From the IMG/VR virus record IMGVR_UViG_3300013103_000001, positions 5,424 to 69,423 of that record: a stretch of 64,000 bases of DNA, one strand, 5' to 3'. Positions 32,469 through 57,700 of the stretch are shown here, in pieces (position 1 is the first letter of the stretch; every line of letters begins with the position of its first letter). The position numbers were made by a program, and so were the translations under genes. A model generated the notes under the pieces. It had not been told where the DNA came from. It worked only from the letters and a program-made list of their open reading frames with translations, and made no database searches. Source of the DNA: a virus.

Positions 32469-32473
32469 AAAAG

Positions 32474-34084: not shown

Positions 34085-34361
34085 ATATTTCACCCAATGG
34101 GTCTATTTTCTTTATCTCGGACCCTTTAGAGGCGCAAATTTTATACAAAATTGATGGGTTGTGCAGCTCCTTCATCTTTATTAGAATGTGTTCTTTGACG
34201 TCGAGCCTCTTCTCCAAAAAATTAGCGAAGTTGCTCGCTTCTTCGAAGCTCAAAAAATCAAAGACTGCGCACGTCTTATGTTCGATAGGCACAACCACAT
34301 ACGCGCCAGGGATCCGCTCGAGTGTATCATCATTCTCGAGATATGCAATTAAATGATACAT
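34068..34361 (-). CDS. Hypothetical protein
   Basis: 97-aa coupled ORF. Confidence 0.65.
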   Translation of the reverse strand: MYHLIAYLENDDTLERIPGAYVVVPIEHKTCAVFDFLSFEEASNFANFLEKRLDVKEHILIKMKELHNPSILYKICASKGSEIKKIDPLGEIYVKTN

Positions 34362-37154: not shown

Positions 37155-37569
37155 TTATCCCTTTCTTTTTCATAATTTCTCTCATTTCTTTATTAATTAA
37201 GAAGCTATACCTGTTTCGGTCTGTGTATGGGTCGCTCAGAAATATTAATGTCTTCTTTTCCTTTTCCTCTTCTGAGAGAGAGTCCCACGCAGACTTTTTT
37301 ATTTTGAAGTATTTCGATATTTCTTTCACAAACTCTTTCTCTACTTGTTCTTTTTCGAGCTTAGTCAACGGGAGCAATCTTTTTTTCTTTTCCAATTCAC
37401 TTAGTTTCTTTAATCCGTTATCTGTTATCTCTAAGAGCCCTTCAATTTCTCTTGCTAACTTCTGTTCTTCGATCATGTCTAATATTTCTTTCGACATCGC
37501 CCATTCCTTTGGCAGAGGCCGGCTTTTTAAACATTTTAGGAAAATATATAAGTCAAATTCTCCTCTCAT
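37147..37569 (-). CDS. Hypothetical protein (wHTH-like N-terminus)
   Basis: LEITDNGLKKL wing motif; last gene of the replication operon. Confidence 0.65.
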   Translation of the reverse strand: MRGEFDLYIFLKCLKSRPLPKEWAMSKEILDMIEEQKLAREIEGLLEITDNGLKKLSELEKKKRLLPLTKLEKEQVEKEFVKEISKYFKIKKSAWDSLSEEEKEKKTLIFLSDPYTDRNRYSFLINKEMREIMKKKGIIK

Positions 37570-40382
37570 TTAACCCACTCTGTTATCTTTCTTTGTCCTC
37601 TATAAAAAGTCTCCCAAGATATGTCTAAAGCTTCGAACACTGGAGTCATCACCGATTTGATACATTTTCTGACTATTTCCTCAGTGTCGAGCGTTTTTAT
37701 GAACTCTTTTGGGATTTGAGATTCGTCTGTGAAACCAAAAACATCAGTCTTTCCGCGGACAATTCTCAAGGTCTTTTTTTCTCCGTTTAATTCAAATGTT
37801 AGGACTCTCGGTTTCAGAGGGATGAGCAAAATTTTGTCTCCTGTTTTAAAGTTAGTGCCGAGGTATGCATTAGAAGTTAGAGCGGCCCGGACGTGGATAG
37901 GGATGCCTTTTGTTTGTTTTTTAGAGCTTGTGTCTAAAGAATACTTTTCTATATTCGCGACGAGGTTCTTAGGAGTCGCTATATCAGAGATATTATACTC
38001 CATCTTCTTGATCCTCTTGACTATTTTTTTTAGCCCTCGGAGGATCGCGTCAAGGTCTATGTTAAGGTGGACTAATTCTAAAAATCTTTTTTGGACTTCT
38101 CTCGAAATTTTTGGAGTATCTTGTTTAATTGCTTCCATGCCTACTTGTCTGAACTCGTCTACCCAATACCCTTCGTTCCAAACTCTGCGAAAAGCGTATT
38201 TCTTCTTCTTGTTTTGGAGGAACGAAGTGTAGAACTGTTCGAAAGCTATTTTTACCATCATGTCCTTCTCTTTGACGTAGAACCTCGACGCAAGAAAAAT
38301 TTTATAGGCTTTGTTCACGTTTTCTACTAGAAAATTTACGACTTTAAAAGCGTCTCCTCCATCAGGCTTCCTAAAGCCTGCAGGGACTCTTATAAATGTG
38401 CTATCAGTGTCTCCATACAGTACTTTGATCTCTCTGTCTAGTTTTATGTTTGGGTATTTCTTTTTAAGACGAGAGACTATTCTTTTCGACTCAAAGAACT
38501 CTTTAGTAAATTTTATTATCTCTCGACAACTCCCTGTAATTGAAGGAGGGATATCTTCGTCATAGAGTCTAAAACTTGAGTAAGCAAATACTCCATACGT
38601 CGCATTGATTGGTTTCTTGTAGATTTTTTGCTCTTCATAGTACATTTTAAATTTTTCGTTACATTCGACTTCGGTCTTACACTCTTCGCACTTCCCTACA
38701 GGTCGGTGTTTTTTCATCATAGCCTTCATCTCCATCCTCCTGTCGATGAGCGGCAAGAGGACTTTTCTCGTTATCCCGTCTCTAGAGTTCCTAAACCATA
38801 CTCTAGTCGCAGAACGAGTATAACTTATCTCAGGGAACTTCCCAAGAATTGGGACAAGAAGATGTGAGAACTTATGAAATTGGTCCAATTTCTTGATTAT
38901 CTTCCGGTCTCGGACCTTCATTTCAGGAGAGAAGTTCCCTCCAATGATGATCGAAGGGTAAAACGACGAAAGGTCAGCTACGGCGACATTAAAGTGACGG
39001 CCTGGGACTGGGTCAAAAGTTATTGCTCCTTTGTAATGAGTTTTCTCTCGCTTTCTCCTAGATGGGAGGACTACACCTTCTTCTCGCGCTCTCTTCAAGA
39101 ATATCATGTCTAAAAACCTGCTTGGAGCGACTACGTCTTTAAATTTGCAACCAAAAGCTCGTCTCTCAGCGTCTAGCTGAGCTATAATCCCTCTCTTTTT
39201 GTCTATCTCGACGCAGAGTTCGACGTCATAGAGGTTGTACTTCAAACTCTTTACAAAATTTTTGTCCCACGTCTCTCCGACTCCGTGGACTTCTAACTTC
39301 CCTATTTTGAACTCGAAATTACCGACGAGGTCTAAGGAAAACCTCCTCAAGAATTTCGCAGAGTAAGAAAACCTCCTATACATCTTCAAGAGGTCGACGA
39401 CGACTCTGCCTCCTATCTTCACTTCATTAAAGTATTCAGTATATTGTTTAATATATACTTTCCTCAACGGGCTTATCCCGTCTACCTCTAACCCTAAAAT
39501 ACGGCACCTCGCGTGGAGGTACGGGATATCGAACTTTTCTATGTTCCACCCCGTAATCACGTCTGGGTCTTGTATTTTAAAAAAATTTATAACGTTTTCT
39601 AGCATCTCGACTTCGTTTTTGAAAATAAAGACCTTCCACTTATGGTCCCTACCAGATATCCTCCCTTTAAACTTGCGACAAAGTTTAGCTGGGAGTACTT
39701 TTCTGTGCCAAGTGAAAGTAAAATAAGTGTCTGTAAAGTTGTCGTAAAACGTCACTACTATTAGAGGGGCTATCGGGTCTTTAAAGTCAGGGAACTTCGG
39801 AGCACAGACACGCTCGTCGACTTCTATATCAAAATAACAGACTCTAATGTTCGGAGCGACTAAAATTGGCGAAACTTCACTTAAAAGGACGTTTTTCTTG
39901 TCAGGGACTCTGACTCCTCCTCGGATGTCGAGGTCGAGGAGGACTCTTCTGTCTGCTCTTATGTCTGCTTCAAAAGTTATAATATGCTCGCTAAGGTTAG
40001 AACGGTTTTCTTTATTTTTTTCAGAAATCTCAGCTAATAACGAAGCCATAGCTCTATCGGATTCACAACTTATCTTTAATACCTTCTCTCCAAAGAAACC
40101 TTTGAGCTCTGTAGGTTCCTTATTGACATTATTTACTTTATCTTTATCTTTTTCTCTTATGTAGAAGTAAGGCTTAAAGTCAGTGATCGTCACTGAACGC
40201 CTTTTTTTACTCCTTACCTCTCTCCCAAAGAGGTAGACGAGAGTCTTCTCTTTCTCGTCGAACCCTGCTCTACACGAAGTGTGGAGAGCTTTAGCTATAA
40301 ACTCTTTTCCACACTTTTTACATTTATAAAACTTGAGCGTCTCGCTCTCTATATGACTAACAGACATGTCCATTTCGATCAC
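37566..40382 (-). CDS. polB: Family B DNA polymerase
   Basis: Exo I FDIE, Exo II GWNIEKFDIPYL, Exo III YNLYD, DLSSFYPSII, KKPINATYG, YGDTDS, KKKY; PIP box QRKITEW. Confidence 0.97.
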   Translation of the reverse strand: MIEMDMSVSHIESETLKFYKCKKCGKEFIAKALHTSCRAGFDEKEKTLVYLFGREVRSKKRRSVTITDFKPYFYIREKDKDKVNNVNKEPTELKGFFGEKVLKISCESDRAMASLLAEISEKNKENRSNLSEHIITFEADIRADRRVLLDLDIRGGVRVPDKKNVLLSEVSPILVAPNIRVCYFDIEVDERVCAPKFPDFKDPIAPLIVVTFYDNFTDTYFTFTWHRKVLPAKLCRKFKGRISGRDHKWKVFIFKNEVEMLENVINFFKIQDPDVITGWNIEKFDIPYLHARCRILGLEVDGISPLRKVYIKQYTEYFNEVKIGGRVVVDLLKMYRRFSYSAKFLRRFSLDLVGNFEFKIGKLEVHGVGETWDKNFVKSLKYNLYDVELCVEIDKKRGIIAQLDAERRAFGCKFKDVVAPSRFLDMIFLKRAREEGVVLPSRRKREKTHYKGAITFDPVPGRHFNVAVADLSSFYPSIIIGGNFSPEMKVRDRKIIKKLDQFHKFSHLLVPILGKFPEISYTRSATRVWFRNSRDGITRKVLLPLIDRRMEMKAMMKKHRPVGKCEECKTEVECNEKFKMYYEEQKIYKKPINATYGVFAYSSFRLYDEDIPPSITGSCREIIKFTKEFFESKRIVSRLKKKYPNIKLDREIKVLYGDTDSTFIRVPAGFRKPDGGDAFKVVNFLVENVNKAYKIFLASRFYVKEKDMMVKIAFEQFYTSFLQNKKKKYAFRRVWNEGYWVDEFRQVGMEAIKQDTPKISREVQKRFLELVHLNIDLDAILRGLKKIVKRIKKMEYNISDIATPKNLVANIEKYSLDTSSKKQTKGIPIHVRAALTSNAYLGTNFKTGDKILLIPLKPRVLTFELNGEKKTLRIVRGKTDVFGFTDESQIPKEFIKTLDTEEIVRKCIKSVMTPVFEALDISWETFYRGQRKITEWVK

Positions 40383-41161
40383 TCGAAGAGAGTTTTAGTT
40401 AAGTTGACACTGAGGTACTTTTTTATCAGCCTCTTTTTCCTTTCTCGAGGGACATTAAAATATTTTAATATCTCAGTAAACGTCGCTAAATTCTTTCTAA
40501 ACTTCAGTTTCTTAATGTCTTTTTTTACTTCAGGATATAAAATGTATTCCCTCGCTCGTTTTGCTTCTCGATTTAAGAACTTAGGAGTCTCATTTTTCTC
40601 TACAATTTTAATTGCAGCAGCTTTACCGCGCCCACGTGGGAGGAGTTTTTTGTTATAATCTGTCCCTAAGAGGAGGAGAAAGTCGACATAATCCTCTCTC
40701 GCCCAATGTGTGGGCAGTCCGTTCTTTTCGAGCCAATTTTTAAACGAAAGTTTGACGAACTGTTTTTTCCCAGTTATTATAGTATACTCAGGGTCTCCTA
40801 GGAATTCTTTCCCTCCAAAAGCGAAAGTGTCGTCAATGTCGTTAGAAGAAAAAAAGTCGACAAAGCCTATGCGATTCAAATAAGCGCACTGAGCTTCAGC
40901 GTCATATGGAGAAATTATTACAGGGACTCCCATCCCCTTAAGGGCCTTAGTAGCCTTAGTCGTGGAAGGTTTTACAAATTTTTTAGGGCGTCTGGACTTG
41001 AGAGGGTGCCTACCTCCGTCGAAACAATAAATTGGGAGTATATTTTTCTTTAGGATATTTAGCGTCCTATAGATGATCCCGTAGACTTCTGAATTCGGCC
41101 GTTTATACGAAAACTTGAATTGGTAGAGGCAGATGTTCCCGTCAATAGCTACTTTTATCAT
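40379..41161 (-). CDS. fen: Flap endonuclease (FEN1/XPG family), compact
   Basis: VAIDGN, CFDG, PYDAEAQCAYL, SNDIDD, LGTDYN, GRGKAAAIKIV. Confidence 0.9.
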   Translation of the reverse strand: MIKVAIDGNICLYQFKFSYKRPNSEVYGIIYRTLNILKKNILPIYCFDGGRHPLKSRRPKKFVKPSTTKATKALKGMGVPVIISPYDAEAQCAYLNRIGFVDFFSSNDIDDTFAFGGKEFLGDPEYTIITGKKQFVKLSFKNWLEKNGLPTHWAREDYVDFLLLLGTDYNKKLLPRGRGKAAAIKIVEKNETPKFLNREAKRAREYILYPEVKKDIKKLKFRKNLATFTEILKYFNVPRERKKRLIKKYLSVNLTKTLFE

Positions 41162-41370
41162 TCCTGAGCCTCCTTTATTTTCACGAACTCCTGCTGTTTT
41201 TCGTAATCGAGAGCGATCGGGACTCCTGAGAGTATCCTATTCAGTTTCTCGAGTACATAAGCACGAGAGACCATCCCTTTTCTCGCTCTTATAATCAATT
41301 TTAACTTTAACACTTCATCCTGAATCTCAAAATCAATTAAACTCTTTTTGTATTTATCCAATTTCATCAC
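41158..41370 (-). CDS. Small hypothetical protein
   Basis: 70-aa ORF with ATGA coupling. Confidence 0.65.
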   Translation of the reverse strand: MMKLDKYKKSLIDFEIQDEVLKLKLIIRARKGMVSRAYVLEKLNRILSGVPIALDYEKQQEFVKIKEAQE

Positions 41371-42404
41371 CTATAGACCGGGTGCTTTTTTTTGCACCCT
41401 TTTACACAATAATCGTTTTGTCTCATCTTTTCACACGACCACATGTAATAACCGAGGTCAGAACCCCGATTGTAAATGTAGTTTACCATCCCTCCATGGG
41501 AAACAGCTTCTTCTCTAGTACAGTGGTAGAATTTTCTTCTACTCAAGAAGCTTTTTAAAACTCTTTCGGTTACCTTAGGAGGGACCCCTGATTCTTTCAA
41601 AAATACAATTACAAGAAAACGGCCTTCGTATCCGAGGTCTTTAATACTCATCAATCTTTGGATACACGGAGGGATGTCTAATTTCCCTAAAATACTCTTA
41701 ATTTTTATAGAAGTTTCATCTGGCCAACCGTCGAAATCAACTCTCTCCTTAAAAAGAGGCTCAGAGTCAAAACGAGATATGTCTAATAGCCCTGAGCCAT
41801 AAAAAAACACCCTGCTACTTTGGACTTTTGCTTCGCGCAGAATTTCTTCGTGAGATTTTTTTAAGAAGTTTTTAATCGAAATACAAAACCTTCGCCCTTT
41901 AGTGTTAAGCGTCCCAGGGACTCTTACAAGCTGAGCGAGAGAACCTCTTGTTTTCTTATCTATAAGAGTATGTTGAGAAGTTTCTAGCATATCTAAATAA
42001 GTTCTTATAGCTCCTTGAGGGTTTTTAAGATTATTTTCTATGAACACGTGGAGCTGATAACAGTTCCCTGAAAAAAATACTGTGTGGAGTATATCTTTTT
42101 TAGAAAAAAATCTGTGGAGTTTGACACAATCTGCATAAGCTCTGAGCGGGTCTTTAGTCTTATTAGCACTACTCCCGTCGAGGTCTATAAATATTTTATC
42201 TACAATTGCAGTCTCATATACTCCTTTTGAACTCTTCCCTACCCTTCTTATCTCTTTGAATGCATACTCAGACGTAAAGATGTCACAATATCCATTTCGC
42301 TTGTTGACCTCCTCGAGCATCTCATCCAAAGATGACACTATGAACCTGGTCTTCGAGCCCATCGACGCTATTTCTCTAGGAAATTTGTCGAAAAGCCCTT
42401 TCAT
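41367..42404 (-). CDS. Archaeo-eukaryotic primase, PriS fused to PriL C-terminal (Fe-S) domain
   Basis: FPRE, IDLD, FSGNCYQLH, RVPGTLN; C-terminal PPCI...GR...SCEKMRQNDYC..GC..HP. Confidence 0.85.
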   Translation of the reverse strand: MKGLFDKFPREIASMGSKTRFIVSSLDEMLEEVNKRNGYCDIFTSEYAFKEIRRVGKSSKGVYETAIVDKIFIDLDGSSANKTKDPLRAYADCVKLHRFFSKKDILHTVFFSGNCYQLHVFIENNLKNPQGAIRTYLDMLETSQHTLIDKKTRGSLAQLVRVPGTLNTKGRRFCISIKNFLKKSHEEILREAKVQSSRVFFYGSGLLDISRFDSEPLFKERVDFDGWPDETSIKIKSILGKLDIPPCIQRLMSIKDLGYEGRFLVIVFLKESGVPPKVTERVLKSFLSRRKFYHCTREEAVSHGGMVNYIYNRGSDLGYYMWSCEKMRQNDYCVKGCKKKHPVYR

Positions 42405-43261
42405 TTTTCACCTCTCTTAAGCTTAATTAAAGACTCCTTAGGCCAGGTCTTTCTGCATATATGATAATACTCACAGCCTGAGAAATAAGGAGTACTGAGG
42501 CACTCATTGTTTATTACCGGGAGGAACTCTCCTTCTTCTATAATTTTCAAGCACTTATCTCTAGCTTTCAAAGCAGCTTTTAACGTCGCTTTTTTGAAAT
42601 CTTCTGCTATGACTTTTCCACTGAGGTAGAAGACTCCTATCATCTTCACAACTTTATAGCTCGGGAGTTGCTTTTCAGAAAGGATTTTGTAATATGTGCA
42701 TTGCCTCCGAAATTCTGAGCTCAGGCTATAAGTGAGCTTCCCTTTTATGTCTCTTGGCTTAGGAGGTTTTGGTTTATAGTCTATAATAACAAGTTCTCTG
42801 CTATCTTCTGAAGGAAAAAAGAGATCTCGCCTGTCTATAATCCCAGAAAGGGAGTCTTCTTCAGACTTCAAATATACTTCAGTCGAGTGAGGGTAAAAGT
42901 GCTCTAAAATGTCTTTTTTACTCGAAAAATGTTTTTTACAACTTAAAAGCATCTGCGCTTCTATTGTACTAAAGTTCCAAAAAGCTCTTAAATAGCGGTC
43001 ATTAGGGACTTTAGGGCTGTTATTAAATAGGCTTGTATGAAAATAATCTCTAAATTGCTCAAATGTTTTATCTTTCAAGAGCAACTTAGGGTCTATGATA
43101 TTAAAAAAATGTTTGAAGGCGAGATGGATGTTCATCCCGTCTATCACAACACGTGGAATTTCAGTTTCAATTTTATCTATATATCGATACTTGTACTTCC
43201 GTGGGCACTGGAGTAAAACTTTTATTTTTGAATTCGAGAGGATTATTCTCTCTCCCTCCAC
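42401..43261 (-). CDS. PD-(D/E)XK RecB/Cas4-like exonuclease
   Basis: SNSKI, CPRKY, GMNIH, GIIDR, IIDYK, QCTYY, C-terminal Cys cluster. Confidence 0.88.
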   Translation of the reverse strand: MEGERIILSNSKIKVLLQCPRKYKYRYIDKIETEIPRVVIDGMNIHLAFKHFFNIIDPKLLLKDKTFEQFRDYFHTSLFNNSPKVPNDRYLRAFWNFSTIEAQMLLSCKKHFSSKKDILEHFYPHSTEVYLKSEEDSLSGIIDRRDLFFPSEDSRELVIIDYKPKPPKPRDIKGKLTYSLSSEFRRQCTYYKILSEKQLPSYKVVKMIGVFYLSGKVIAEDFKKATLKAALKARDKCLKIIEEGEFLPVINNECLSTPYFSGCEYYHICRKTWPKESLIKLKRGEK

Positions 43262-43788
43262 TCTTTGTCTATTTTAAACTCCGGGACAGTTGTTTGCCCC
43301 ATATATTTACTAGACTCTCTCAAGTGGTACTTAACGTCGACACTTTGTGCTTCAAAGAAAACAATTTGACAGACTCTCAAATCCTCACGGAGGACTATTC
43401 GGTTTGGAGAGAAGTTAGTTATCAGCCCTTTGAGCGTCCCTCGATACCCGGTGTCTAGAAGGCCTACTCCATATATGAGCAAAGGGATTGTACACGAGTT
43501 GCTCCTCGGGAGGATCACTCCGAGCGTCTCGGACTTACACCCGACAATTTCTTTAGTATTAAATGTGACCGTCTCAAACGGAGAAATAGTGTACGGTAGT
43601 TCGACCAGCTCTGATGGAGGCACGTCTTTTGTAATGTCAATTTGTTTATGTGCTTTTTTAGACACTCTAATGGGGCTCGCTAACCTTAAATCATATGAGT
43701 TAGGCCCTAGATTTTTTTCCTTGAAAGGCTCTATATAGATCTCTCCTTTTTTCATAAGTTCTAAAACTTTCGAATCTGATAAACTCAT
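43243..43788 (-). CDS. dCTP deaminase/dUTPase family protein (likely dUTPase-type)
   Basis: PNSYDLRL, PRS, LDTGYRG, RVCQIVF, SKYMGQ; deaminase TLE Glu replaced (LKGL). Confidence 0.8.
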   Translation of the reverse strand: MSLSDSKVLELMKKGEIYIEPFKEKNLGPNSYDLRLASPIRVSKKAHKQIDITKDVPPSELVELPYTISPFETVTFNTKEIVGCKSETLGVILPRSNSCTIPLLIYGVGLLDTGYRGTLKGLITNFSPNRIVLREDLRVCQIVFFEAQSVDVKYHLRESSKYMGQTTVPEFKIDKEWRERE

Positions 43789-44724
43789 TTATACGACCTC
43801 AACAACTTTTATTTTCGAAGAAGCGAGAAACTCTTTCACGCTATCTTCTAACCTACCTTTAAAAAACACTTCTTTGACCTCTGCGTTGACTACTCTTTTC
43901 GCGTCTTGAAAAGAAAGGGGTGCAGAAGTATACAATGACGCTCCACTCGTAGAACTCCCGTGGACAGCGACTTGAATTATACAATTTTCTGCTGCTCCTA
44001 CTCCTACGCAATTGTCCCAATCTAGAGGGCCGTTTTTTTGATAGACTCTGCAAGTCTTACAGTGGGGAAACCCTTTTGGAGCACCGTTATACCCAGTAGC
44101 TATAACTCTCCCGCTCTTTACTAATATAGCACCAGACTTTCTTATGAGGCACGTAGACCTCCGAGAACAGAGTTCAGCTAATTTCATATAAAACTCAGAA
44201 GACCTTATCCTCTTTTGTCCAATCTCTTCTAGTGTGTATATCAAAGTTTGTCGTGGAGAAAAAAAAGTCGTGTTCACTCTAATGATATTTCGTATGGCCG
44301 TCGTCTTAATGACTTCGTCGTACAAGTCTACTAATTTTCTAACTTCACTTTCTGATATGTATTCATCGTCTTTGACCCTGCTAGTTATATTCGCTACTGT
44401 AGAAGACAAGTAGACCAATATGACGTCGTCAAAAGTCGCTAACTCTCGGTCTACTTTATTCCAAGAAATCTTATCAAATGGCCGGCCCTTCAGTTTGCTG
44501 TAAACGTATTCAGATAAATGAAACCTGTCCAGGACCATCGACATTTTGGTCTTCCTATGTATTTCGAGGACAGCAGAATGATAGCCCGCTGCGTGACCCT
44601 CTCCATATTTTCCCTTCTCTTCCGGTCTCTTCCCTTTAATTACGGGAGCGCAGAGAGACTTAGAGAGGTTCTTACAAAGAGTAGTCTTTCCTACCTTGTC
44701 CGGCCCTTCTACTATGACTAACAT
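43789..44724 (-). CDS. Thymidylate-kinase-like dNMP kinase fused to a degenerate dCMP deaminase (ComEB-like) domain
   Basis: VEGPDKVGKTT, LDRFHLSEYVY; then RSTCL..GAILV..IATGYNG, with HAE and PCxxC lost. Confidence 0.85.
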   Translation of the reverse strand: MLVIVEGPDKVGKTTLCKNLSKSLCAPVIKGKRPEEKGKYGEGHAAGYHSAVLEIHRKTKMSMVLDRFHLSEYVYSKLKGRPFDKISWNKVDRELATFDDVILVYLSSTVANITSRVKDDEYISESEVRKLVDLYDEVIKTTAIRNIIRVNTTFFSPRQTLIYTLEEIGQKRIRSSEFYMKLAELCSRRSTCLIRKSGAILVKSGRVIATGYNGAPKGFPHCKTCRVYQKNGPLDWDNCVGVGAAENCIIQVAVHGSSTSGASLYTSAPLSFQDAKRVVNAEVKEVFFKGRLEDSVKEFLASSKIKVVEVV

Positions 44725-45740
44725 TTTTTCACTCCTCTTAGTTTATTAGCAAAAATGTCGCAATATGAACAGTAAACACCGCAAGCAGAGTTGCAGAAGT
44801 GGCCATTATCTTGGAAATACTCGAGGAACCCAGCTAGCTTAGAACTATCTATGTAATAATCGTAGCCCTCTCCTTCATCTTCTAACCTCCCAGGCACTAT
44901 TGGGAACAAGTCAAGAAGGTTGCCGTCGTGCTTTTCGTTCACATAAGCTTTTATAACTCTTTTTTGAAACTCTAGCGGCATAGTCCTCCCGGTGATTTTG
45001 AACCACTTCACTCCAGTTTTTCTATAGACTTCGAGGTCCTCTGGGCAAATAAACCTCGCTTTCAAGATCTCTGCAATGAAGTCTTTTTTCTGGACTGCCC
45101 AACAGTTGTTATACGGGTAGTCTTTATACTTCGTATTTGTCCCTTGCATTATGTAATGGTGGTTCCTCCAAGGGCACCCTTGGACGCACACTTCGTTCAC
45201 TATTAGCTCAAGGTCACACCCACTGCTCAAGAGGCTCTTTATCAAGAGGAAGTTCCTGTTCTCCATCAGGTCGAGGACGACTCGGTCTATGTTCTCGTAC
45301 CTCTCAGCGAGGAGTTTGTACGTCCTGACGGAGTTCACTCGCAAGATCGTAGACAAAATAACTTTAAGGCCAGGGAAGTGCTCTTCCATCAACTCTACAA
45401 TTATTGGTGCGCTCACTATAAATTTCTCAACTCCACAGTTCTTGATTAAGTTAAGAAAAGTTAGCACTCCTTTGATATTACTCTCTGTCGGGAGAAAAGC
45501 AGGAGAGTTCAGAGCGTAGACAACATCGAGGTTGCAAGACTCTTTTGCATACTCAATGTGGTCTATAAGACCTTTCACGCTAACTCTAGGGAGCCTAGAA
45601 CTCTCTCGAGCTGTCCCGATCGGGTCATTAAGTAAAGAACCATAGACTTCTTTGACTTTCACTCTCTTAGACTCCGAGTTCATATCTGCTATAAAGTCGA
45701 GGAGCCCGTTGTTAAATAAAGTCCCAGTCGTTAAATACAT
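44718..45740 (-). CDS. Peptidase U32-family (Fe-S hydroxylase-like) protein
   Basis: YALN, ELIVNEVCVQGCPWR, C, FICPEDL, GVKWFKITGR, C-terminal Cys cluster. Confidence 0.88.
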   Translation of the reverse strand: MYLTTGTLFNNGLLDFIADMNSESKRVKVKEVYGSLLNDPIGTARESSRLPRVSVKGLIDHIEYAKESCNLDVVYALNSPAFLPTESNIKGVLTFLNLIKNCGVEKFIVSAPIIVELMEEHFPGLKVILSTILRVNSVRTYKLLAERYENIDRVVLDLMENRNFLLIKSLLSSGCDLELIVNEVCVQGCPWRNHHYIMQGTNTKYKDYPYNNCWAVQKKDFIAEILKARFICPEDLEVYRKTGVKWFKITGRTMPLEFQKRVIKAYVNEKHDGNLLDLFPIVPGRLEDEGEGYDYYIDSSKLAGFLEYFQDNGHFCNSACGVYCSYCDIFANKLRGVKKC

Positions 45741-46489
45741 AACACATCACCTAATTCTTCATTACTATATATACTATTCTTAAAAGGCATTACAGAAATA
45801 TAACCGCTCAGAGCTGCTCTCACGTCGTCGTCCCTATCGCACTCTTTAAAAAATATATCGCGGCGTCTGTTTTTATACGTGAGCAAATAAAACGTCCCTC
45901 GAAACGTTTCAAATCGGGCGAACTCGTCTTGAAAGTTTATATTAGACTGCTTTGTAAATATAACTTTGTCTAGTGAAGCTCCTGGAGGGATTATAATGTT
46001 TAACCCAATGCGTTTTTTCTTTAATACGTCCAATTTGATTTTTTTTAAGATTTCGCTCCCGATTTGAGACGCTCTGTGAAAGTCTGTGCCTTTAAGCACT
46101 GAGCACGAGACCGTCGGGTACCCGTAAGAGAGGGCTGCTAGAGACGCTCCAATCGTCGCAGAGACGAGGATATCTCCTCCAAAATTTGGCTCCGGGTTCA
46201 ATCCAGATACTATAATGTCTGGGTTAAACTTTAAAGTAGTGAGGCCGAAAACAGTACAGTCTCTAGGAGTACCTGTTATCTGGTATAAGTTATTTTTAAG
46301 TTTTTCAGCTCTTATGAACGATAGGGATATAGAGCTGCTCTTTGCTGCACTATCAAACTTAGGGAGGACGCTTAAGACTTCGTGGTCTTCTAAGAGTGTG
46401 TCCCTAAAGATCTTTACAGAGTTTTCTTCGTCAGATAGAAAAAAAGAAGAGTTTTTGATAGGTTCGTCTGCTACGTGTAAAATTTTCAC
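45731..46489 (-). CDS. Divergent SurE-family 5'/3'-nucleotidase
   Basis: GTPRDC, PDIIVSGLN, ATIGA, LNI, D..A...GYISVMP; NDDG altered to ADEP. Confidence 0.8.
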   Translation of the reverse strand: MKILHVADEPIKNSSFFLSDEENSVKIFRDTLLEDHEVLSVLPKFDSAAKSSSISLSFIRAEKLKNNLYQITGTPRDCTVFGLTTLKFNPDIIVSGLNPEPNFGGDILVSATIGASLAALSYGYPTVSCSVLKGTDFHRASQIGSEILKKIKLDVLKKKRIGLNIIIPPGASLDKVIFTKQSNINFQDEFARFETFRGTFYLLTYKNRRRDIFFKECDRDDDVRAALSGYISVMPFKNSIYSNEELGDVLCI

Positions 46490-46501: not shown

Positions 46502-47389
46502 TCAAAAGTCGAGAGTGGGCTCAATTACAGCTATCCTGTCGAGAATTTTCCCGAAGCTAGGCTTCACAATCTCTTCATTGAAATTAAGCCCTGCTCTCGA
46601 ACCGCGGACAGTCCCGTACCTAGTCGCGACACCACCAACGTATTTGATGTTCATTTCTAAAATCAAGTCAAGCCAGTAGCCTGTTGAGTAATGCCAAACT
46701 GGAGCGTATGCTCCAGTCTTCTGTAGGCGTTGTTTCCCAGTATCTGTGGGGAGGACATCCCATACCTCTTTCACTTTTGCAGTCACTATAACGTTACAGT
46801 GGACCCTTCGGATCAATTTCATGAGAGACTCCCACTTGTCGTTCCTCCAATACCAATCGGAAGGCCTGACGTCAGCTTGGAACCCTGTCTTTTTAGGCCC
46901 CAATTTTAAGACTTCTAAGCGGAGGTAAGAGTTAACCCAGCTATAGACGTCAGAGAGAGAGTCTATAACGATGGTCCCTTCCTTTTCGTCTGCTAATTCA
47001 ACTAAAGTGTCCCAAAAAAGTTCGAAGGACTTGCACGGGTCGACTTCTTTTTCATCGTTTTCGACATATACAGGGCACACTCTCACTTTCTTTGCCTTAA
47101 ACTGTTTTTTATAAAAACGTGGGAGCCAGCTCGCAGCATTCTCTGTATCGATGATAGACGTCACGACTCCTGGAGGGATTTTAGGGCCAACTACGGAATC
47201 AGTCCACTTTTCTACGAGAGAAGCAGAAGCAGAAAATATGCTTTTCCCGACTTTTTCTCTACCGATGACTGCCATCTTAATTCCAGCAGTTTTGGTTATA
47301 GCTGCTTTATCATAATACGTCCATTCTCCTCTTATTTTCTCAGAAATTTTTTCAACTGGTTCTCTAGCGGCTTGCTCCATCCAACCCAT
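46502..47389 (-). CDS. RecA-fold ATPase (AAA_24/Sak4-like recombinase)
   Basis: GREKVGKS, IDTE, IVIDSLS, NVIVTAK; next to the SSB. Confidence 0.75.
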   Translation of the reverse strand: MGWMEQAAREPVEKISEKIRGEWTYYDKAAITKTAGIKMAVIGREKVGKSIFSASASLVEKWTDSVVGPKIPPGVVTSIIDTENAASWLPRFYKKQFKAKKVRVCPVYVENDEKEVDPCKSFELFWDTLVELADEKEGTIVIDSLSDVYSWVNSYLRLEVLKLGPKKTGFQADVRPSDWYWRNDKWESLMKLIRRVHCNVIVTAKVKEVWDVLPTDTGKQRLQKTGAYAPVWHYSTGYWLDLILEMNIKYVGGVATRYGTVRGSRAGLNFNEEIVKPSFGKILDRIAVIEPTLDF

Positions 47390-48507
47390 CAGTCAAAATC
47401 CTCCTCTGTTAACTGAATGACTTCATCACGACTTTCCTCAACTTTCTCTGGCTCGAGGTCCTCTTTTTTTATTTCTTGGACTTCTGGTGCTTTGATTAGA
47501 TATTGTGGGTAGGCGTATATTCCGAGGACACTTATGACTATTTCATCAGGGTTGCTTTTTGTCCCTTTTGAAGTCTGCCCGCAGACCATCAGCTTACTCC
47601 CACTAGAGAAGTTCGGTTTGATAAACTCTGGGACGTAGCACTTCACTGGAGGTAAGTCTTTCTCGTCTAACTTTTCGTCATCAAGCCACATAGTCCAGCT
47701 CCCAAAAGGACTTATTGAAGGGTCTAGAGACAGGACAAATGCGTCGAAGACTACGAACCGATTAAAGTCGTCTTTAAATGCGTTGTGCCACTCGGCCAGC
47801 ATGTCTATTTTACATTTGTGGTCTTTTAACGCTGTAGAGAAAAGAGTTTTTGGAGGAGGGACTTCTATATTTTTTGCAGGTTGAAATTCTGTTAACGCTG
47901 AGTAATTTAGGATAATCGGGTTTGACGTCACGTCGCTTTCAATTGCAAAAAACTCAACAGGTACAAATGTTGGGATCTTTGGAAGTATATAATCAGAGCT
48001 CTTAGGGTCCGCTGGACTACGAGATATGATGAGGACAAAAGGCTTCCAGTCCAATTTATCTGTAGACTTTAGTGGAGAGCGGCTAGCTACTCCGAAGACT
48101 TTGAAGAGAAAGTTCTCTTTTAGTGGGAGCCCATAGTTCCTGTTTTTAGTCCCTGTCGAGAAGAACTCGACGTTGTCTAGAGGAGTCCCGTCTTCGTCTG
48201 TGTACCCTAAACTTATTGCTTTCTGAGGGTCTCTCTTGAAGAGCTGTTTTGCAGCTTTCCAGCGTTTGTTATTAGTGTCAAAAGGCTTCGATCGACCAAA
48301 GACTACTCCACAGTATCGAGCAGCAGTAGAAATAGCTCGACGCCTGTATTTTGCGCGGACTTGCTGCCTCGCGACTTTTTCCTGGTCTTCTTCTGAGAGG
48401 TCGGGGAAAAGGCTTTTTGTGTCTTCCAGTGTTTTTAAGTACTCTTTTTTGAGAGCTTCGATCGGCTCTTTGAACTTTTCACTCCATTTTTTTAAAAAAT
48501 CGTTCAT
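47389..48507 (-). CDS. OB-fold single-stranded DNA-binding (RPA-like) protein
   Basis: Probable start MNDFLKK (48507); OB-like strands (LMVCGQT, ISVLGIY); acidic tail LTEEDFD. Confidence 0.65.
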   Translation of the reverse strand: MNDFLKKWSEKFKEPIEALKKEYLKTLEDTKSLFPDLSEEDQEKVARQQVRAKYRRRAISTAARYCGVVFGRSKPFDTNNKRWKAAKQLFKRDPQKAISLGYTDEDGTPLDNVEFFSTGTKNRNYGLPLKENFLFKVFGVASRSPLKSTDKLDWKPFVLIISRSPADPKSSDYILPKIPTFVPVEFFAIESDVTSNPIILNYSALTEFQPAKNIEVPPPKTLFSTALKDHKCKIDMLAEWHNAFKDDFNRFVVFDAFVLSLDPSISPFGSWTMWLDDEKLDEKDLPPVKCYVPEFIKPNFSSGSKLMVCGQTSKGTKSNPDEIVISVLGIYAYPQYLIKAPEVQEIKKEDLEPEKVEESRDEVIQLTEEDFD

Positions 48508-48614
48508 ATATATATAACCTCTACGAAATTTGGTAATAAAAAGTAGAATATAAAAATATAAAAATATTCTTTTGTGCCTCACCACAGTCAAGGAAAAAAA
48601 AATATGAGGAGCCT

Positions 48615-49373
48615 TCAGGACTCGCCGCCAGGCACCCGCTTCTTCCGCTCTTCTGGAGGCATCTTCTTCCAAGCTTCACTGCCACGCTTACTGAGTTTCT
48701 TGATCCTCTTTTTCGCAGCTTTTCTCGCAGCTTTTTGAACTTTGCTAGGGTGAGACTTTCTATACTTCAACTTACCTACAAGGTCCATAAACTGGTCCCA
48801 AGAAATCCCTTTATACCCGTGGTTTTTCCTGCACTTAGAAATCGCTTTGACAGCTAGCCTCATCTCTTTCTCGTTCAAAAGAGGGACGTTCTTAGGAGTT
48901 AGCTTCTCGTTTAAAGCATATTTGAACTTTTTGTGATAGGCCCAGAGGGTCGCTAAAACGAGGCGTAGTCTGAGAGTCCTCGCGTTTACACCTCTTTCTG
49001 AGAGGACCCCTCGTTCGTAATCTTCTTCGATATTTTCGAGAGTGTCTAACACCTCTGAGAGGTGGGAAAAGCGGCCGACAGGGTCTAAGTCCTCGACGTC
49101 CCTGCCGAGGTAGAGGTCTTCTCCTTTCGGGACCCACGCGACTCTGCCTTTGTAGTCTATAGTAGGCCTCTCGACTTCGCTCTTCGCGAGGAGCTCTTCA
49201 TAAGTATAGCCTGGAAAAGCGTCTTGCCAGTCGTCTGTTATCCACGTCGGAGGCATCCTAAGTTGAGCAGCAGAAACAGTCCGGCCAAACTCGGAAGGGA
49301 GTTTTACTTTAGTTTGAGCGAGCTCTTTCCACTTTTTTCGAGCTGCTTTAATTCCTTTTTTCGGCCTAGACAT
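48615..49373 (-). CDS. Basic protein with MSRP leader
   Basis: MSRPKKGIKAARKK; K/R-rich termini; GTGA RBS. Confidence 0.75.
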   Translation of the reverse strand: MSRPKKGIKAARKKWKELAQTKVKLPSEFGRTVSAAQLRMPPTWITDDWQDAFPGYTYEELLAKSEVERPTIDYKGRVAWVPKGEDLYLGRDVEDLDPVGRFSHLSEVLDTLENIEEDYERGVLSERGVNARTLRLRLVLATLWAYHKKFKYALNEKLTPKNVPLLNEKEMRLAVKAISKCRKNHGYKGISWDQFMDLVGKLKYRKSHPSKVQKAARKAAKKRIKKLSKRGSEAWKKMPPEERKKRVPGGES

Positions 49374-49470: not shown

Positions 49471-50061
49471 ATGGTAAAAATATTTGTAGACGATAGAGAA
49501 TATTTCACAGATAAAGAATTTCTTACAAAAAGGTTGCTCATAGGGGACTATACGGCAGAGCATTTGGACGCTGTTGTAGAGCACAAAACACCAAGGGACT
49601 TCGAGAAAAGCTGTACTACAGGGCATTTAGTAAACCAAGTAATTAAAATGAATAACACGTATAAAAAAAGTGTAGTCGTAGTATCAGGGATCCCAAACTT
49701 CTCCAATCAAATACTCGGGAGGTTAGCAAGATTGATAGCGAGTTCAAACACGTCTTTTGTATTCCTTAAATCGAAAGGAAATGCGTTCTACTTTATTAAA
49801 AAGTTCTTCGAGAAGGTCGAAGACGAGAAGCCTTTAACCCCGGAAGTACAGCTGTTCTCGACTGAAGATATGAGGAGAGCAGCTCTCTGTTGTATACCGT
49901 CTATAGGCTGGACTCTCGCAGAGAGGCTGCTAGAAAAGTTCAAAACAATGAGAGCAATCGCTTCTGCTAGCCTGAAAGAGTTGACAAAAGTTAGAGGCAT
50001 AGGTAAAGAAAAAGCTGTAAAAGTCGTTGAATTTTTTAGCTATGAAAAAGGAAGAGACTAA
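49471..50061 (+). CDS. ERCC4/XPF-family nuclease with (HhH)2
   Basis: VDDRE, GDY, VEHKT..DF, IPSIG, VRGIGKEKA. Confidence 0.9.
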   Translation: MVKIFVDDREYFTDKEFLTKRLLIGDYTAEHLDAVVEHKTPRDFEKSCTTGHLVNQVIKMNNTYKKSVVVVSGIPNFSNQILGRLARLIASSNTSFVFLKSKGNAFYFIKKFFEKVEDEKPLTPEVQLFSTEDMRRAALCCIPSIGWTLAERLLEKFKTMRAIASASLKELTKVRGIGKEKAVKVVEFFSYEKGRD

Positions 50062-54719: not shown

Positions 54720-57700
54720 TTATTTACTCCTTTTTCCTTTAGTCTTTTTGATAAATTTTTCCTTTAGCACTTCAGGGACCTCTTTTTTCTTTGAAAAGAA
54801 CTTCTTATATACAAAGTATACTGCAGCTACGACTATCACTATTATCGACAAAATAAGGCCTCCAATAGTAACAGGCTTAAACTCTATATCTCTGAAGTAA
54901 AGGTAGACTTCATTCTCTCCTTTCACTAAACTCAAATTGTCTAGTTTATAATAGTGGCCCTTTAATATAGCCATTGCCCTGACTTCATCTTCAGACAGCC
55001 CAGAAAATACCTTTCGAGACTTCACTTTTAAGTCTGAAGTCAGGAGAGCGACGCCTCTCAAATCGAAGGCTACTACGATTTTAACTGAATATATGTTTGA
55101 AGACACGAATTTTTCTTCGATTCTAATAATTGGGGTTGCTTCAAAATAGACATACGCTGTTGAAAGAGGGTTTGCCCACCCTTCAAAGAAGATTGTCCCG
55201 TTCATCACATATTCTATATCATACCTCGTCCCGTCACCTAAATAAATAGCATAAACACTCCAGTTCGAGCTTACGTTCACGTACCAATATCTAGACGTAA
55301 AGTCGAAGTCGAGGTATGCTCTTAAAAACACTTTTTCTCCAGGAGAAATGATGACGTTCTTGTCAGGGACGATTTTTGTGATAGTAGCAAAAGGGACTGG
55401 AGCTCTCCCTATGAGAACCCACTTTTCGTAAGGTGACGACTGAGAAAGAGAAAATTTCAGAACACAGACTTGAATTTCCTCTGCATTAGAGTAAAATGTT
55501 CTGTTCTCGTAATAAACACTCCAACTTTCCATAAAGTGTGAATGGTCCACTCCAGCATCTCTTAAGTCGACGATAAATGTCCTGTTGTTTATCACAAACG
55601 ACGTTATAATTGTGGCTTTGACTTCTGTATAGACTCCTGTGTCGACAATAAGAGAGAGCTGGACTTCTACTCTCTTCCCTTGTATTATATACCCTTGACG
55701 TGGGAAAGTAGTGTTATCGTCCTCTATTGTGGCAAAGAAAACAACGTAATTGCTGCTATAGTTTTCTACATTTTTATAGAACGAACCGTTCTCAAAGTAA
55801 ATATCCCAGATTTGATACTCGTTTGCTAAGTCTGGGAGTAAGACAACTCTGAGGCTATTGTCCACTCCAGAAAAAGTGTTGAGCGTGTATTTTAGTCGCA
55901 CGAGAGAAGTAGTCTCTGAAATCAACTCTAAACTGTCAGAGAACCCGAATATTTCATACTTAGACGTGAAAGAAATATTAGGGAGAGTGAAACTGTAGAC
56001 ATAGTCCCCTAGATGTTCTATAGCTATGTCTGTTTTTTTTCCGTTAATGACTACTCCCCAAAATTCGAGAGGCCTTTCGAGCCATTTAGATAAATCTAAA
56101 GCGACTAGAATCGGGTCTGAAGAATTTTCAAGGACATTTACTACCATCTTTGCTCCAAAATGAGTCCAGTTGGAGTAGTATACACTGCCATCAGTAATAG
56201 TGATCAAAGTACCATACCCTTTGATCGTAAAGTTAGCAGTTTCGTTTACAAAAAGAGTAAACCTTACGTGATAGCCTATTCTTCGAATATCAGTGCTAAG
56301 GTACGAACCGTTACCGGAAAAGACTGCCCAATAGTCCAAGAAGACGAGGTAGTCTGACAAGTCTAAGTCGAACTGGACGTCGCCAACTTTCACATAAGAG
56401 ACAACAAAAAGGTCGACTTCCATATACATCCCAAGCTCGTGCTCGACTACTTGATATGAATAAGACCAAGAATACCCGCGAATAGAATAAGTGAAGTGTC
56501 TAGAGTGTACTACAACAACTAAGTAGTTAGAATATTGAATAAGTTCTTCTATTTTTGAGCCATTTTCATACTCTAAATAATAAGAAATATACCCTGAAAT
56601 ATTATAGCCCATACTTCCTTCGGAGATGTAAGGCTGGAAGAACTCATATACGTCAAACTCTGTATTTGCTTTAATAGTGAAGCTGAGGTCGAAGTAATTG
56701 TTCCTTTGCGCGACCATTTCTCTTTCGACTATCCAGCTGTAAGACTTCAAGATATATCTCCCTTTGAACGAGACTGTCACTAAAAACGTGTTGTCAGGCC
56801 TCTTGATAAATTCAGATGAGTTATAGACGAGCATCTCTGTAGCGACAGATATAACACTCACATATATAATAGAAGAGGGCTTAAACCCACTCCCAGTGTC
56901 TATTTCTAGAGTGTATTTGTACACCTTTGCTGAGAGGTGCTCGTATGTGCTCTCCCAAACAGCGAAGTCTCCGTTCGAGAATGGAGTGCTCGCTATTATT
57001 TGAGACCCGTTCCTGAATACTCTATAATAGCCTGAACTAGCCAAAGCCCACTTCAAAGTGAATTTGTAATTGACGTAAGCTCGAAATGTCGAGTTTGCAG
57101 TCATGTTAGCTACATACGTCGTGAAATCGAGCCTCGATATGTTAACATATAGCACGAAGTCGTTGTCTCCAAAAATGGAGTAAAAGTGGCTCTCAAATTT
57201 ATCAGAATAGACATATATCTTTTGCCCGTAATACTTCCCTCTCTGGACTAGAGTAGTATTGTCGAGAAAAATTTTATACTCACTTTGAGAAGAAAGGTTA
57301 AACACTAAAAGGGCGTCAATCCCTGAGAGCAAAGAAACATTTAGCGACTTATTTGCTCTAATTACGTACATGAAGTCTCTCCACAACTCGAATTTCTTGT
57401 AGTTAGCGACCGTCGCATTTGAAATAGTGCAGTCTTGTACCCACGAATAACTCCCAAACTCAGCCAGTGAGTTTACATTTATAGAGACCTCGTTGTATGT
57501 TTCGTTATTGATGTCCATGAAAACTTTGTCCCTGGCCCAATTGTACCCGTGGACGTAGTAAGTGCCGCTCTGGTAGACTGTAATATTATACCTTTTCTCA
57601 GGTATGTTCACGCTCACGTTGTATTCGTACATAGTCCCGTTCCCAAAATACCAAGAGTACAAGGAGTAATCTTCGCTGACATCGACGTCATTGAAGACTA

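Follow-up and report, generated by a model that had tools for sequence, protein, structure and literature searches.

A four-gene block in the viral genome IMGVR_UViG_3300013103_000001 (IMG/VR) is best explained, as judged from its genes and those of its relatives, as a module for the modification of deoxynucleotide precursors that lies inside the replication operon. The virus record is complete (69,423 bp, with direct terminal repeats), and the window analyzed here is a stretch of 64,000 nucleotides, bases 5424-69423 of the record, to which all coordinates refer. The block encodes a SurE-like nucleotidase, a protein of the U32 family, a fusion of a thymidylate kinase (Tmk)-like domain with a dCMP-deaminase-like domain, and a dUTPase-like protein of the DCD family. 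We consider the chances somewhat better than even that the U32 protein is an O2-independent, prephenate-dependent 5-hydroxylase of pyrimidine deoxynucleoside monophosphates (dNMPs), and that its product feeds the synthesis of glycosylated DNA. The core of this proposal, the hydroxylase assignment, is well supported by comparison with other viruses, though unproven.

The four-gene block and its place in the replication operon

The block is part of a single unbroken string of genes on the minus strand, which runs from a 427-aa open reading frame (ORF) through to the gene for family B DNA polymerase (PolB):

47389-48672, minus strand: 427-aa ORF without a Pfam family, most upstream member of the string
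46502-47389, minus strand: AAA_24 (Sak4-like) ATPase, directly upstream of the module (PF13479, 1.9e-9)
45731-46489, minus strand: SurE-like 5'/3'-nucleotidase, 252 aa, very divergent (PF01975, 1.7e-23)
44718-45740, minus strand: U32-family TIM-barrel protein, 340 aa (PF01136, 1.9e-11)
43789-44724, minus strand: kinase-deaminase-like fusion, 311 aa (PF02223 and PF00383)
44215-44724, minus strand: Tmk-like P-loop dNMP kinase domain, residues ~1-170 of the fusion (PF02223, 2.7e-6)
43789-44214, minus strand: predicted dCMP-deaminase-like pseudoenzyme domain, residues ~171-311 of the fusion (PF00383, 7.5e-6)
43243-43788, minus strand: DCD-family trimeric dUTPase-like protein, 181 aa (PF22769, 1.8e-24; PF00692, 2.8e-10)
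42401-43261, minus strand: PD-(D/E)XK nuclease (PF12705, 3e-16)
41367-42404, minus strand: PriL-like primase (PF04104, 4.4e-6)
between the PriL-like primase and FEN1, minus strand: 70-aa ORF (ORF call)
40379-41161, minus strand: FEN1/XPG (PF00867, 8.9e-14; PF00752, 2e-7)
37566-40382, minus strand: PolB, final gene of the string (PF00136, 1.9e-37; PF03104, 1.8e-24)

The SurE and U32 genes overlap by 10 nt, the U32 and fusion genes by 7 nt and the DCD and nuclease genes by 19 nt, and the gap between the fusion and the DCD gene is 0. A preliminary description of the window had reported the SurE-like, U32, fusion and dUTPase-like genes as coupled within the replication operon. This gene order and the domain identities stand, as all names given to the four module genes have Pfam backing; what does not stand is the enzymatic competence of the deaminase domain, whose active site is lost, and the DCD-like protein has likewise lost its catalytic Glu (see below). 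None of the four module proteins reached a curated NCBIfam cut-off and the U32 protein matched no NCBIfam model, which indicates that they are divergent from their cellular namesakes.

Almost every named relative of PolB is from archaea, with identities that do not exceed 30%, and together with the FEN1 and PriL domains this fits an archaeal virus. The replication genes of the window thus appear to be of archaeal type.

Linkage of viral U32 genes to nucleotide metabolism

Strong comparative support comes from the gene neighborhoods of related U32 genes. Pattern scans covered 39 IMG/VR loci, 80 of 143 genome-contig loci and 34 metagenome loci, and neighbors were analyzed by our own ORF calls, clustering, Pfam naming of cluster representatives and hidden Markov models (HMMs) for recurrent neighbors; the counts depend on these gene calls and on the HMMs, whose seeds came from the viral loci, with rows dereplicated at 75-85% identity. 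Linkage was scored after dereplication for U32 rows whose flanks reached 4 kb or more, a neighbor being counted if it was a Tmk-like kinase, dCMP deaminase, glycosyltransferase (GT), dUTPase_2, ThyA homologue or DNA polymerase no further than 6 kb away; seven tree rows had no known gene context. A counted neighbor was present in 29 of 36 viral-type rows and in none of the 51 remaining, mostly cellular rows. A nucleotide-metabolism neighbor was found for 27 of the 36 viral-type rows.

Recurrent beside the viral U32 genes were the Tmk-like kinase, a glycosyltransferase of the GT-B type that belongs to either of two related families, dUTPase_2, dCMP deaminase, the ThyA homologue and PolIII-alpha or PolB, the polymerase gene directly following U32 in many relatives. 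Larger phages also have an arabinose 5-phosphate (A5P) isomerase of the SIS type and an AfhE-like nucleotidyltransferase. In three loci (L010-12) a kinase fused to an active deaminase, the same arrangement as in the window's fusion, lies directly upstream of U32, and L047 has a ThyA homologue, a deaminase and U32.

The conserved linkage that the preliminary description had expected of relatives was recovered, with kinase, GT and polymerase repeated in L046 and L126. Among the closest relatives with usable context is L046, a contig of 12.8 kb whose U32 is 38% identical; on one strand it carries a partial SurE gene, the kinase, a methyltransferase dependent on S-adenosylmethionine (SAM) and a GT of the GT_c11 family, and on the other an AEP primase, U32 and PolB together with a gene homologous to the ORF at 49471-50061 of the window. 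L126 (36% U32 identity) has a GT_c11 gene, then kinase and U32 with overlapping ends, then PolIII-alpha. Hence, in the closest relatives with usable context the linkage is kept for kinase, GT and polymerase, and for SurE in L046 only.

Several further features of these neighborhoods were observed. The methyltransferase of L046 (861-1529, minus strand) lies between kinase and GT and could mean an extra step, for instance O-methylation of the hydroxyl. A radical-SAM/SPASM protein lies beside a GT_c11-type GT and U32 in L003 (6951-7961), L010 (6645-7586), L131 (6951-7961) and L133 (3514-4431). The window's 244-aa gene at 12107-12841 (minus strand) has as homologues genes of ~200 aa that adjoin PolIII-alpha or U32 in numerous viral loci (short members of cluster c3; L126, L131, L133, L142, L145 and L153).

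The cellular paralogues from Dehalococcoidia and Asgard (L050-L125) share 27-32% full-length identity and the C-terminal Cys cluster with the window's U32, and differ in that a nucleotide, GT or polymerase neighbor was present in 0 of 51; often several paralogues occur in tandem. In metagenome-assembled genomes (MAGs) of Dehalococcoidia (L056, L058, L069, L072, L076, L078 and others) a single U32 gene is divergently oriented from an AMP-binding ligase, with FabG, FabF, acyl carrier protein and PlsX adjoining. MAGs of Asgard and Bacillota (L059, L062, L073, L079, L080, L096, L121 and others) carry arrays in which as many as nine U32-cluster ORFs, including fragments, alternate with genes for B12-binding radical-SAM enzymes and for aromatic prenyltransferases of the ABBA (Orf2-type) family; these arrays resemble a pathway to aromatic natural products or quinone-type compounds that works anaerobically.

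Possible prephenate supply and genomes without a ThyA homologue

Genes that could supply the predicted oxygen donor also adjoin viral U32 genes. [quoted passage not shown] The CM_2 domain was detected in 12 of 39 viral records, mostly adjoining U32. Apart from the feeding of a prephenate-dependent reaction, we are aware of nothing that would explain DAHP synthase or chorismate mutase beside U32 in a phage, and this adjacency suggests, indirectly, that viral U32 proteins depend on prephenate.

No alternative hydroxylase of the ThyA or ThyX type was found in the window's virus, PF00303 and PF02511 having no match at E<=1 in its complete genome. ThyA was found in 13 of 39 related records, and of the 16 with a completeness of 90% or more eight have it and eight do not. 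Three large genomes (G023, G024 and G035; 128-164 kb, 97-100% complete) have no ThyA anywhere, and around their U32 genes (loci L025, L026 and L037) lie the SIS-type A5P isomerase, the AfhE-like nucleotidyltransferase, GT and kinase. The smaller records without ThyA (G002, G004, G005, G007 and G036; 41-49 kb) have a string of dUTPase_2, kinase, GT, U32 and PolIII-alpha, in this order. Unless U32 supplies a hydroxyl, a glycosyltransferase for DNA would find none to act on in these genomes.

The U32 protein

The U32 protein scored 44.1 bits against PF01136 (cut-off 22.4, E 1.9e-11), the best stretch covering profile positions 4-66 of 233 only, with a weak second stretch at 116-193. Its AlphaFold2 model (predicted local distance difference test score 89.5, predicted template modelling score 0.90) has a TIM-barrel fold of the U32 type: the top Foldseek match was 5d88, the U32 protein Mk0906 (E 3.9e-8, TM-score 0.69 normalised on the target), followed by generic TIM barrels only. 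In a PDB sequence search with the U32 profile 5d88 was the sole match. Alignment with hhalign over ~145 columns gave a probability of 88.7 to E. coli TrhP and of 74 to UbiU, and put Glu178 and Cys185 on the E..F..G..C signature, Cys185 being the first Cys of the U32 motif in TrhP. Residues invariant in 38 homologues include S35, R45, N78, S130, R162, E178, N182, C185, C189, C213, K248, R252 and Y266, and a C-terminal CX3CX3CX2C is almost invariant among them. The fourth motif position is a Cys in most phage-clade U32 proteins and an invariant His195 in the window's clade. The viral proteins are 340-390 aa long, compared with 653 aa for RlhA and 453 aa for TrhP of E. coli, and the model consists of the TIM barrel and a small Cys-rich tail, with no additional domain and no RNA-binding extension seen.

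The characterized relatives are linked to reactions that need no O2. TrhP is required for 5-hydroxyuridine (ho5U34) in tRNA, and RlhA for 5-hydroxycytidine (ho5C2501) in 23S rRNA, the latter according to PMC5727448. Both are implicated in O2-independent RNA hydroxylation, UbiU/V bind a 4Fe-4S cluster by a four-Cys motif and use prephenate as oxygen donor, and U32 proteins in general are proposed to be prephenate-dependent hydroxylases, viruses being unmentioned (PMC10990095). With RlhA, TrhP, UbiU and UbiV the window's U32 shares the Pfam family, the TIM-barrel fold and the first Cys of the Fe-S motif, and pyrimidine C5 hydroxylation would be its reaction as it is for RlhA and TrhP. It is remote from RlhA, TrhP and UbiU: its Cys spacing is C-x3-C followed by His195, it has the extra C-terminal CX3CX3CX2C, the viral U32 proteins form lineages of their own, and the proposed substrate, a free deoxynucleotide, is known for no U32 protein. 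We propose it as a predicted Fe-S, prephenate-dependent 5-hydroxylase. The label of protease or collagenase had no backing from the gene context.

Partner proteins: an apparently intact kinase and two lost deaminase sites

The kinase domain of the fusion scored 27.6 bits against PF02223 (cut-off 27, 2.7e-6) and matched an HMM of kinases beside viral U32 genes at 8.9e-51, the window's domain being among the seeds of that HMM. By BLAST it matched cluster c23, the 'thymidylate kinase' of T4-like phages, as well as kinases that stand alone beside U32, and with the P-loop GPDKVGKT and the motif DRFHLSE this half of the fusion is apparently intact. The deaminase domain scored 26.2 bits against PF00383 (cut-off 25, 7.5e-6) and retains RSTC and ATGYNG, and here HAE has become GAA and PCxxC has become PLSFQ. 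The H, E, C and C are retained in 9 of 9 other viral deaminases aligned. As the zinc ligands and the catalytic Glu are gone, the domain is predicted to be a pseudoenzyme that cannot bind catalytic zinc and is catalytically dead.

A similar loss is seen in the DCD-like protein, where a Leu aligns with Glu145 of the M. jannaschii DCD-DUT, which we take to be the catalytic deaminase residue; at this position PDB 1ogh reads ITLEIV, and the mutant entries 2hxd and 3gf0 read A and Q. Its NCBIfam dCTP_deam score was 83.3, under the cut-off of 92.8. Motif III of trimeric dUTPases is Asp-x-Gly-Tyr-Arg-Gly, and the protein keeps LLDTGYRG, aligned with dUTPase and DCD structures. It is thus predicted to be unable to deaminate and to be a deoxynucleoside triphosphate (dNTP) pyrophosphatase at most. 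An active dCTP deaminase together with an active dCMP deaminase, as a route for dUMP supply, was ruled out by these active-site residues.

The SurE-like protein had T. maritima SurE (1ilv) as its best PDB match (1.2e-17), and every NCBIfam score was far under cut-off. Its N-terminal motif is ADEP, with the acidic pair DE, followed by an insertion, and the aligned Ser and Asn are present; the corresponding SurE motif is NDDG, with DD, Ser and Asn as metal-binding residues. A database search with this protein returned one weak homologue and no clue to the host. Taken together, the module is predicted to encode a kinase, a dNTP pyrophosphatase and a SurE-type phosphatase, and, since both deaminase active sites are lost, no deaminase activity.

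A candidate DNA glycosyltransferase

Elsewhere in the window two genes of possible sugar metabolism lie tail-to-tail:

27458-28552, plus strand: GT-B glycosyltransferase, GT_c11 family (weak matches to PF00534, 0.0027, and PF02350, 0.0011)
28532-29599, minus strand: RGP/GT75-family protein, the UDP-arabinopyranose-mutase family (PF03214, 1.1e-23, 84.5 bits, cut-off 23.8)

Against the GT_c11 HMM the window's GT scored 7.3e-87, being itself among the seeds, and the GTs of L046 and L126 scored 1.2e-81 and 7.1e-77; against the HMM of the GT family of the T4-like clusters (GT_c1) the window's GT scored 2.9e-13. BLAST homologues of the window's GT adjoin U32 in L003, L010-12, L028/29/36 and L035. 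We propose that it is a candidate DNA glycosyltransferase, and the RGP-type protein possibly supplies the sugar donor. A co-occurrence of U32 with GT and RGP genes had been put forward as a check on the module, and it held for one partner, as GT_c11 travels with viral U32; the RGP did not follow, BLAST finding no homologue of it in the 39 viral loci. HMMs for the sugar genes of other phages (AfhE_c5 and SIS_c9) had no match in the window.

The U32 gene of T4-like phages

The preliminary description had stated that T4-like phages with arabinosylated hydroxycytosine carry U32 and a Tmk-like gene near the polymerase, and this proved correct. A tblastn search with the window's U32 found 222 GenBank phage records, nearly all T4-like phages of Enterobacterales, plus the Shewanella phage Thanatos, and RB69p050 as query likewise gave 222 records with the same top organism counts, every match being at 60% identity or more. 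In RB69 the order is PolB (p056), A5P isomerase, AfhE-like p053/p052, phosphatase p051, U32 p050, p049, ThyA homologue p048, GT p047/46 and Tmk-like p045.

A ThyA-type synthase was found in 346 phage records, 57 of them Acinetobacter phages, and among the 222 U32-bearing records Acinetobacter is outside the ten most frequent names. PF01136 had no match in four Acinetobacter phage genomes searched in full, while RB69 matched. The four phages (L160-L163) are collinear with the RB69 cluster (L164, NC_004928.1 18503-33195), and the sole difference in the cluster is that RB69 has U32 p050 and the 79-aa p049 between p051 and p048, where the Acinetobacter phages have neither. The hosts of the U32-bearing phages are facultative anaerobes, and Acinetobacter is obligately aerobic.

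The published 5-hydroxycytosine (5hoC) pathway gives the closest known system. According to PMC13326640, 5-hydroxy-dCMP in RB69, DLP3 and others is made by the ThyA homologue, which is flavin-bound and takes its oxygen from O2, so that the route acts at the mononucleotide level, and DLP3 DNA carries tri-arabinosylated 5hoC. The same paper gives a route to UDP-arabinose that is complete without RB69p050, which a table labels 'sugar or heterocycle reductase' with 5d88 as top structural match; the words U32, RlhA and peptidase are absent from its main text. In the literature covered, which did not extend to He et al. 2026 and Mahler et al. 2025, no link was found between a U32 protein and phage or viral DNA modification.

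The clusters of RB69, DLP3, HY126 and RL38J1 have a Tmk-like kinase, a DNA GT, a nucleoside triphosphate pyrophosphatase and sugar-donor genes near the replicative polymerase, to which the window's Tmk-like kinase, candidate DNA GT, predicted pyrophosphatase and possible sugar-donor gene would correspond, and the RB69-type clusters contain with p050 a homologue of the window's U32. In these phages the mononucleotide is modified first and the DNA glycosylated after. Their hydroxylase is a ThyA homologue with a D169N signature, whereas the window has neither ThyA nor ThyX; their sugar genes are A5P isomerase, AfhE and AfhF, whereas the window has the RGP-type mutase; and SurE, the dead deaminase domain and the archaeal-type polymerase and replication genes are found in the window only. 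The claim that U32 is a pyrimidine hydroxylase thus gained strong comparative support from the linkage, the chorismate mutase and DAHP synthase genes and the ThyA-less genomes, although the published synthase of the T4-like phages is a ThyA homologue.

A proposed pathway and its substrate

From the genes and their residues we infer the following pathway. The DCD-family pyrophosphatase would convert a canonical dNTP (dCTP or dUTP) to the monophosphate, which would both feed the hydroxylase and keep the canonical base from DNA. U32, as an O2-independent Fe-S enzyme, would then hydroxylate C5 of the pyrimidine dNMP with host prephenate as oxygen donor, and viruses lacking chorismate mutase, such as RB69 and that of the window, would rely on the host's prephenate pathway. 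The Tmk-like kinase would phosphorylate the hydroxylated dNMP, the dead deaminase domain serving probably as a nucleotide-binding or regulatory module, and PolB would incorporate the modified dNTP. Finally, the GT at 27458-28552, with the adjoining RGP-type mutase, would glycosylate the hydroxyl on the DNA. SurE probably drains an unwanted monophosphate, which is the weakest step.

As substrate we lean towards dCMP over dUMP, with a slight preference. Cytosine is favored by the characterized phages with a phage-clade U32, which all have 5hoC, and by the dead dCMP-deaminase domain, which would fit binding of a cytosine nucleotide. Uracil is favored because thymidylate kinases naturally take 5-substituted dUMP, and because a dNMP nucleotidase with a dUTPase is a hallmark of the thymine-replacing Bacillus phages. 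These phages have dTMPase, dUTPase/dTTPase, 5-hydroxymethyl-dUMP kinase and dUMP hydroxymethylase. The sets of SPO1 and phi-e (5-hydroxymethyluracil) and of PBS2 (uracil-DNA) resemble the module in combining nucleotidase, dUTPase, kinase and a C5-modifying enzyme; they have an active dCMP deaminase and a ThyA-family hydroxymethylase, whereas the window has a dead deaminase domain and U32.

Points against the pathway and alternative explanations

Several observations weigh against the proposed nucleotide hydroxylase. To our knowledge no U32 protein acts on a deoxynucleotide or on DNA, the known substrates being RNA polymers and ubiquinone precursors, and at the position of the phage clade's fourth Cys the window's clade carries His195. 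Seven of the 36 viral-type rows lack any of the counted neighbors, and one member of the window's clade (L049/L130, from the MAG of a CPR bacterium and a metagenome contig that matches it) has a cellular neighborhood, with the order MurT/GatD, U32, NUDIX. No chorismate mutase was found in the window's complete genome, and an HMM search of the window found no DAHP synthase; RB69p049, which we had expected to be a chorismate mutase, was dropped as such, being not recognizable as one at E<=1. The window's GT and RGP genes are ~15 kb away from the module. SurE, which had been thought to remove competing nucleotides, is linked to U32 in the window and one relative only, and a search of the 39 phage-clade records found it in none; this role remains a guess. 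Among the phage records, 346 ThyA-type against 222 U32 records leave at least 124 ThyA-type records without U32, and the Escherichia counts of 177 (synthase) and 137 (U32) leave ~40 synthase records without it. The ThyA homologue with a dNMP kinase is moreover enough for 5-hydroxydeoxycytidine (5hodC) in vivo, as stated in PMC13326640, which means that U32 is not needed aerobically in the T4-like phages.

In L049 (9968-11319) and L130 (5586-6940) the U32 gene overlaps the NUDIX hydrolase gene.

Phylogeny left the origin of the window's U32 between two placements. A FastTree analysis of 111 rows united the window and every other viral-type row in a single clade of 51 rows (support 97). A quick search with IQ-TREE, run on the 103 rows left after removal of eight with long branches, spoke against the proposed reading, as it joined the window's 11-row clade (SH-like approximate likelihood ratio test, SH-aLRT, 87) to cellular clades (92). 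A tree constrained to unite the 51 viral-type rows was however 12.6 log-likelihood units better than the free search (approximately unbiased test, p 0.66). We treat the window's clade as a viral-type lineage, with its relation to the phage clade left two ways by the trees. Simple capture of U32 from an Asgard host was also considered; the window falls outside the Asgard and Dehalococcoidia groups in the tree, but in the quick IQ-TREE run its clade was attached to these groups.

Among the alternatives, the one that survives best, itself unlikely, is that U32 hydroxylates the DNA base after replication and that kinase, pyrophosphatase and SurE are ordinary genes of the dNTP pool. Tmk-like kinases and dUTPases are common in phages. 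In many loci U32 stands directly before the polymerase gene, and the characterized pyrimidine-hydroxylating U32 proteins act on polymers (PMC10990095). The viral proteins are nevertheless short next to RlhA and TrhP and lack an extra domain, the Tmk-like kinase is tightly and repeatedly linked and sometimes fused or overlapping, and the published 5hoC route operates on mononucleotides (PMC13326640).

Slightly less probable still is a role on the sugar side, with U32 as a reductase or hydroxylase for the nucleotide-sugar donor. This would agree with the label of RB69p050 in Table 1 of PMC13326640, with the position of the T4-like U32 between sugar-activation genes and the ThyA homologue, and with its co-occurrence with GTs. 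The label is, however, not argued in the passages found in that paper, where UDP-arabinose is reached without p050, and the Acinetobacter phages, including the tri-arabinosylating DLP3, share the cluster without U32. Under this explanation the ThyA-less genomes would be left with no acceptor hydroxyl, and the adjacency of chorismate mutase fits a prephenate-dependent hydroxylase.

About as improbable is a small aromatic metabolite as the substrate of U32, as for UbiU/V and presumably for the cellular homologues, the module being a nucleotide-salvage operon with a passenger gene. Cellular homologues with 27-32% identity to the window's U32 do occur in unrelated gene contexts, in clusters of lipid or natural-product type, and the quick IQ-TREE placement and the clade member in a cellular context point the same way. 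Against this, U32 overlaps both of its operon neighbors, L046 and L126 repeat the link to kinase, GT and polymerase, and the tree that unites its clade with the phage clade scored higher and was not rejected.

Finally, an auxiliary RNA hydroxylase (ho5U34 in tRNA or ho5C in rRNA) that tunes translation and is merely co-transcribed is very improbable: RlhA and TrhP are the nearest characterized chemistry, but 29 of 36 viral-type loci showed linkage to kinase, GT and polymerase and none of the 51 cellular loci did, U32 is absent from Acinetobacter phages sharing the DNA-modification cluster, and the model shows no RNA-binding extension.

Other genes of the window

Between the GT/RGP pair and the replication region (30204-34093, minus strand) lies a VWA-domain protein of 773 aa followed by a MoxR-type AAA_5 ATPase of 539 aa. 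A single ORF of 3037 aa occupies 54720-63833 (minus strand), perhaps longer since it is heading towards the end of the window.

Implications for viral DNA modification

With the published enzyme of the T4-like phages being a different one, a U32 hydroxylase predicts a second route that is free of O2. In its broadest form, to which we give slightly less than even chances, U32 proteins would be a convergent, O2-free route to 5-hydroxypyrimidine DNA in bacterial and archaeal viruses. It would be the sole route in the window's virus, with host prephenate and a furanosylated 5-hydroxypyrimidine, possibly 5-hydroxyuracil in place of thymine, and an anaerobic back-up of the ThyA-type synthase in enterobacterial T4-like phages. 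We know of no viral DNA with a 5-hydroxyuracil substitution. The back-up role would parallel that of UbiU/V versus UbiI/H/F and of TrhP versus TrhO in the hosts.

Phages with arabinosyl-5hoC replace all their cytosine, and the sole known hydroxylase depends on O2, yet many of them infect gut enterobacteria without oxygen; a prephenate-dependent U32 would explain how they replicate under anoxia and would give a function to an unassigned 'peptidase' gene of 222 sequenced phages. It would also be the first U32 protein with a small soluble nucleotide as substrate, which would help towards the in vitro assay that the field lacks according to PMC10990095. If true, hypermodified DNA would extend to an archaeal-type virus without a thymidylate-synthase homologue, and U32, Tmk-like kinase and GT, with or without chorismate mutase, would make a marker set for viruses with modified DNA in anoxic metagenomes.

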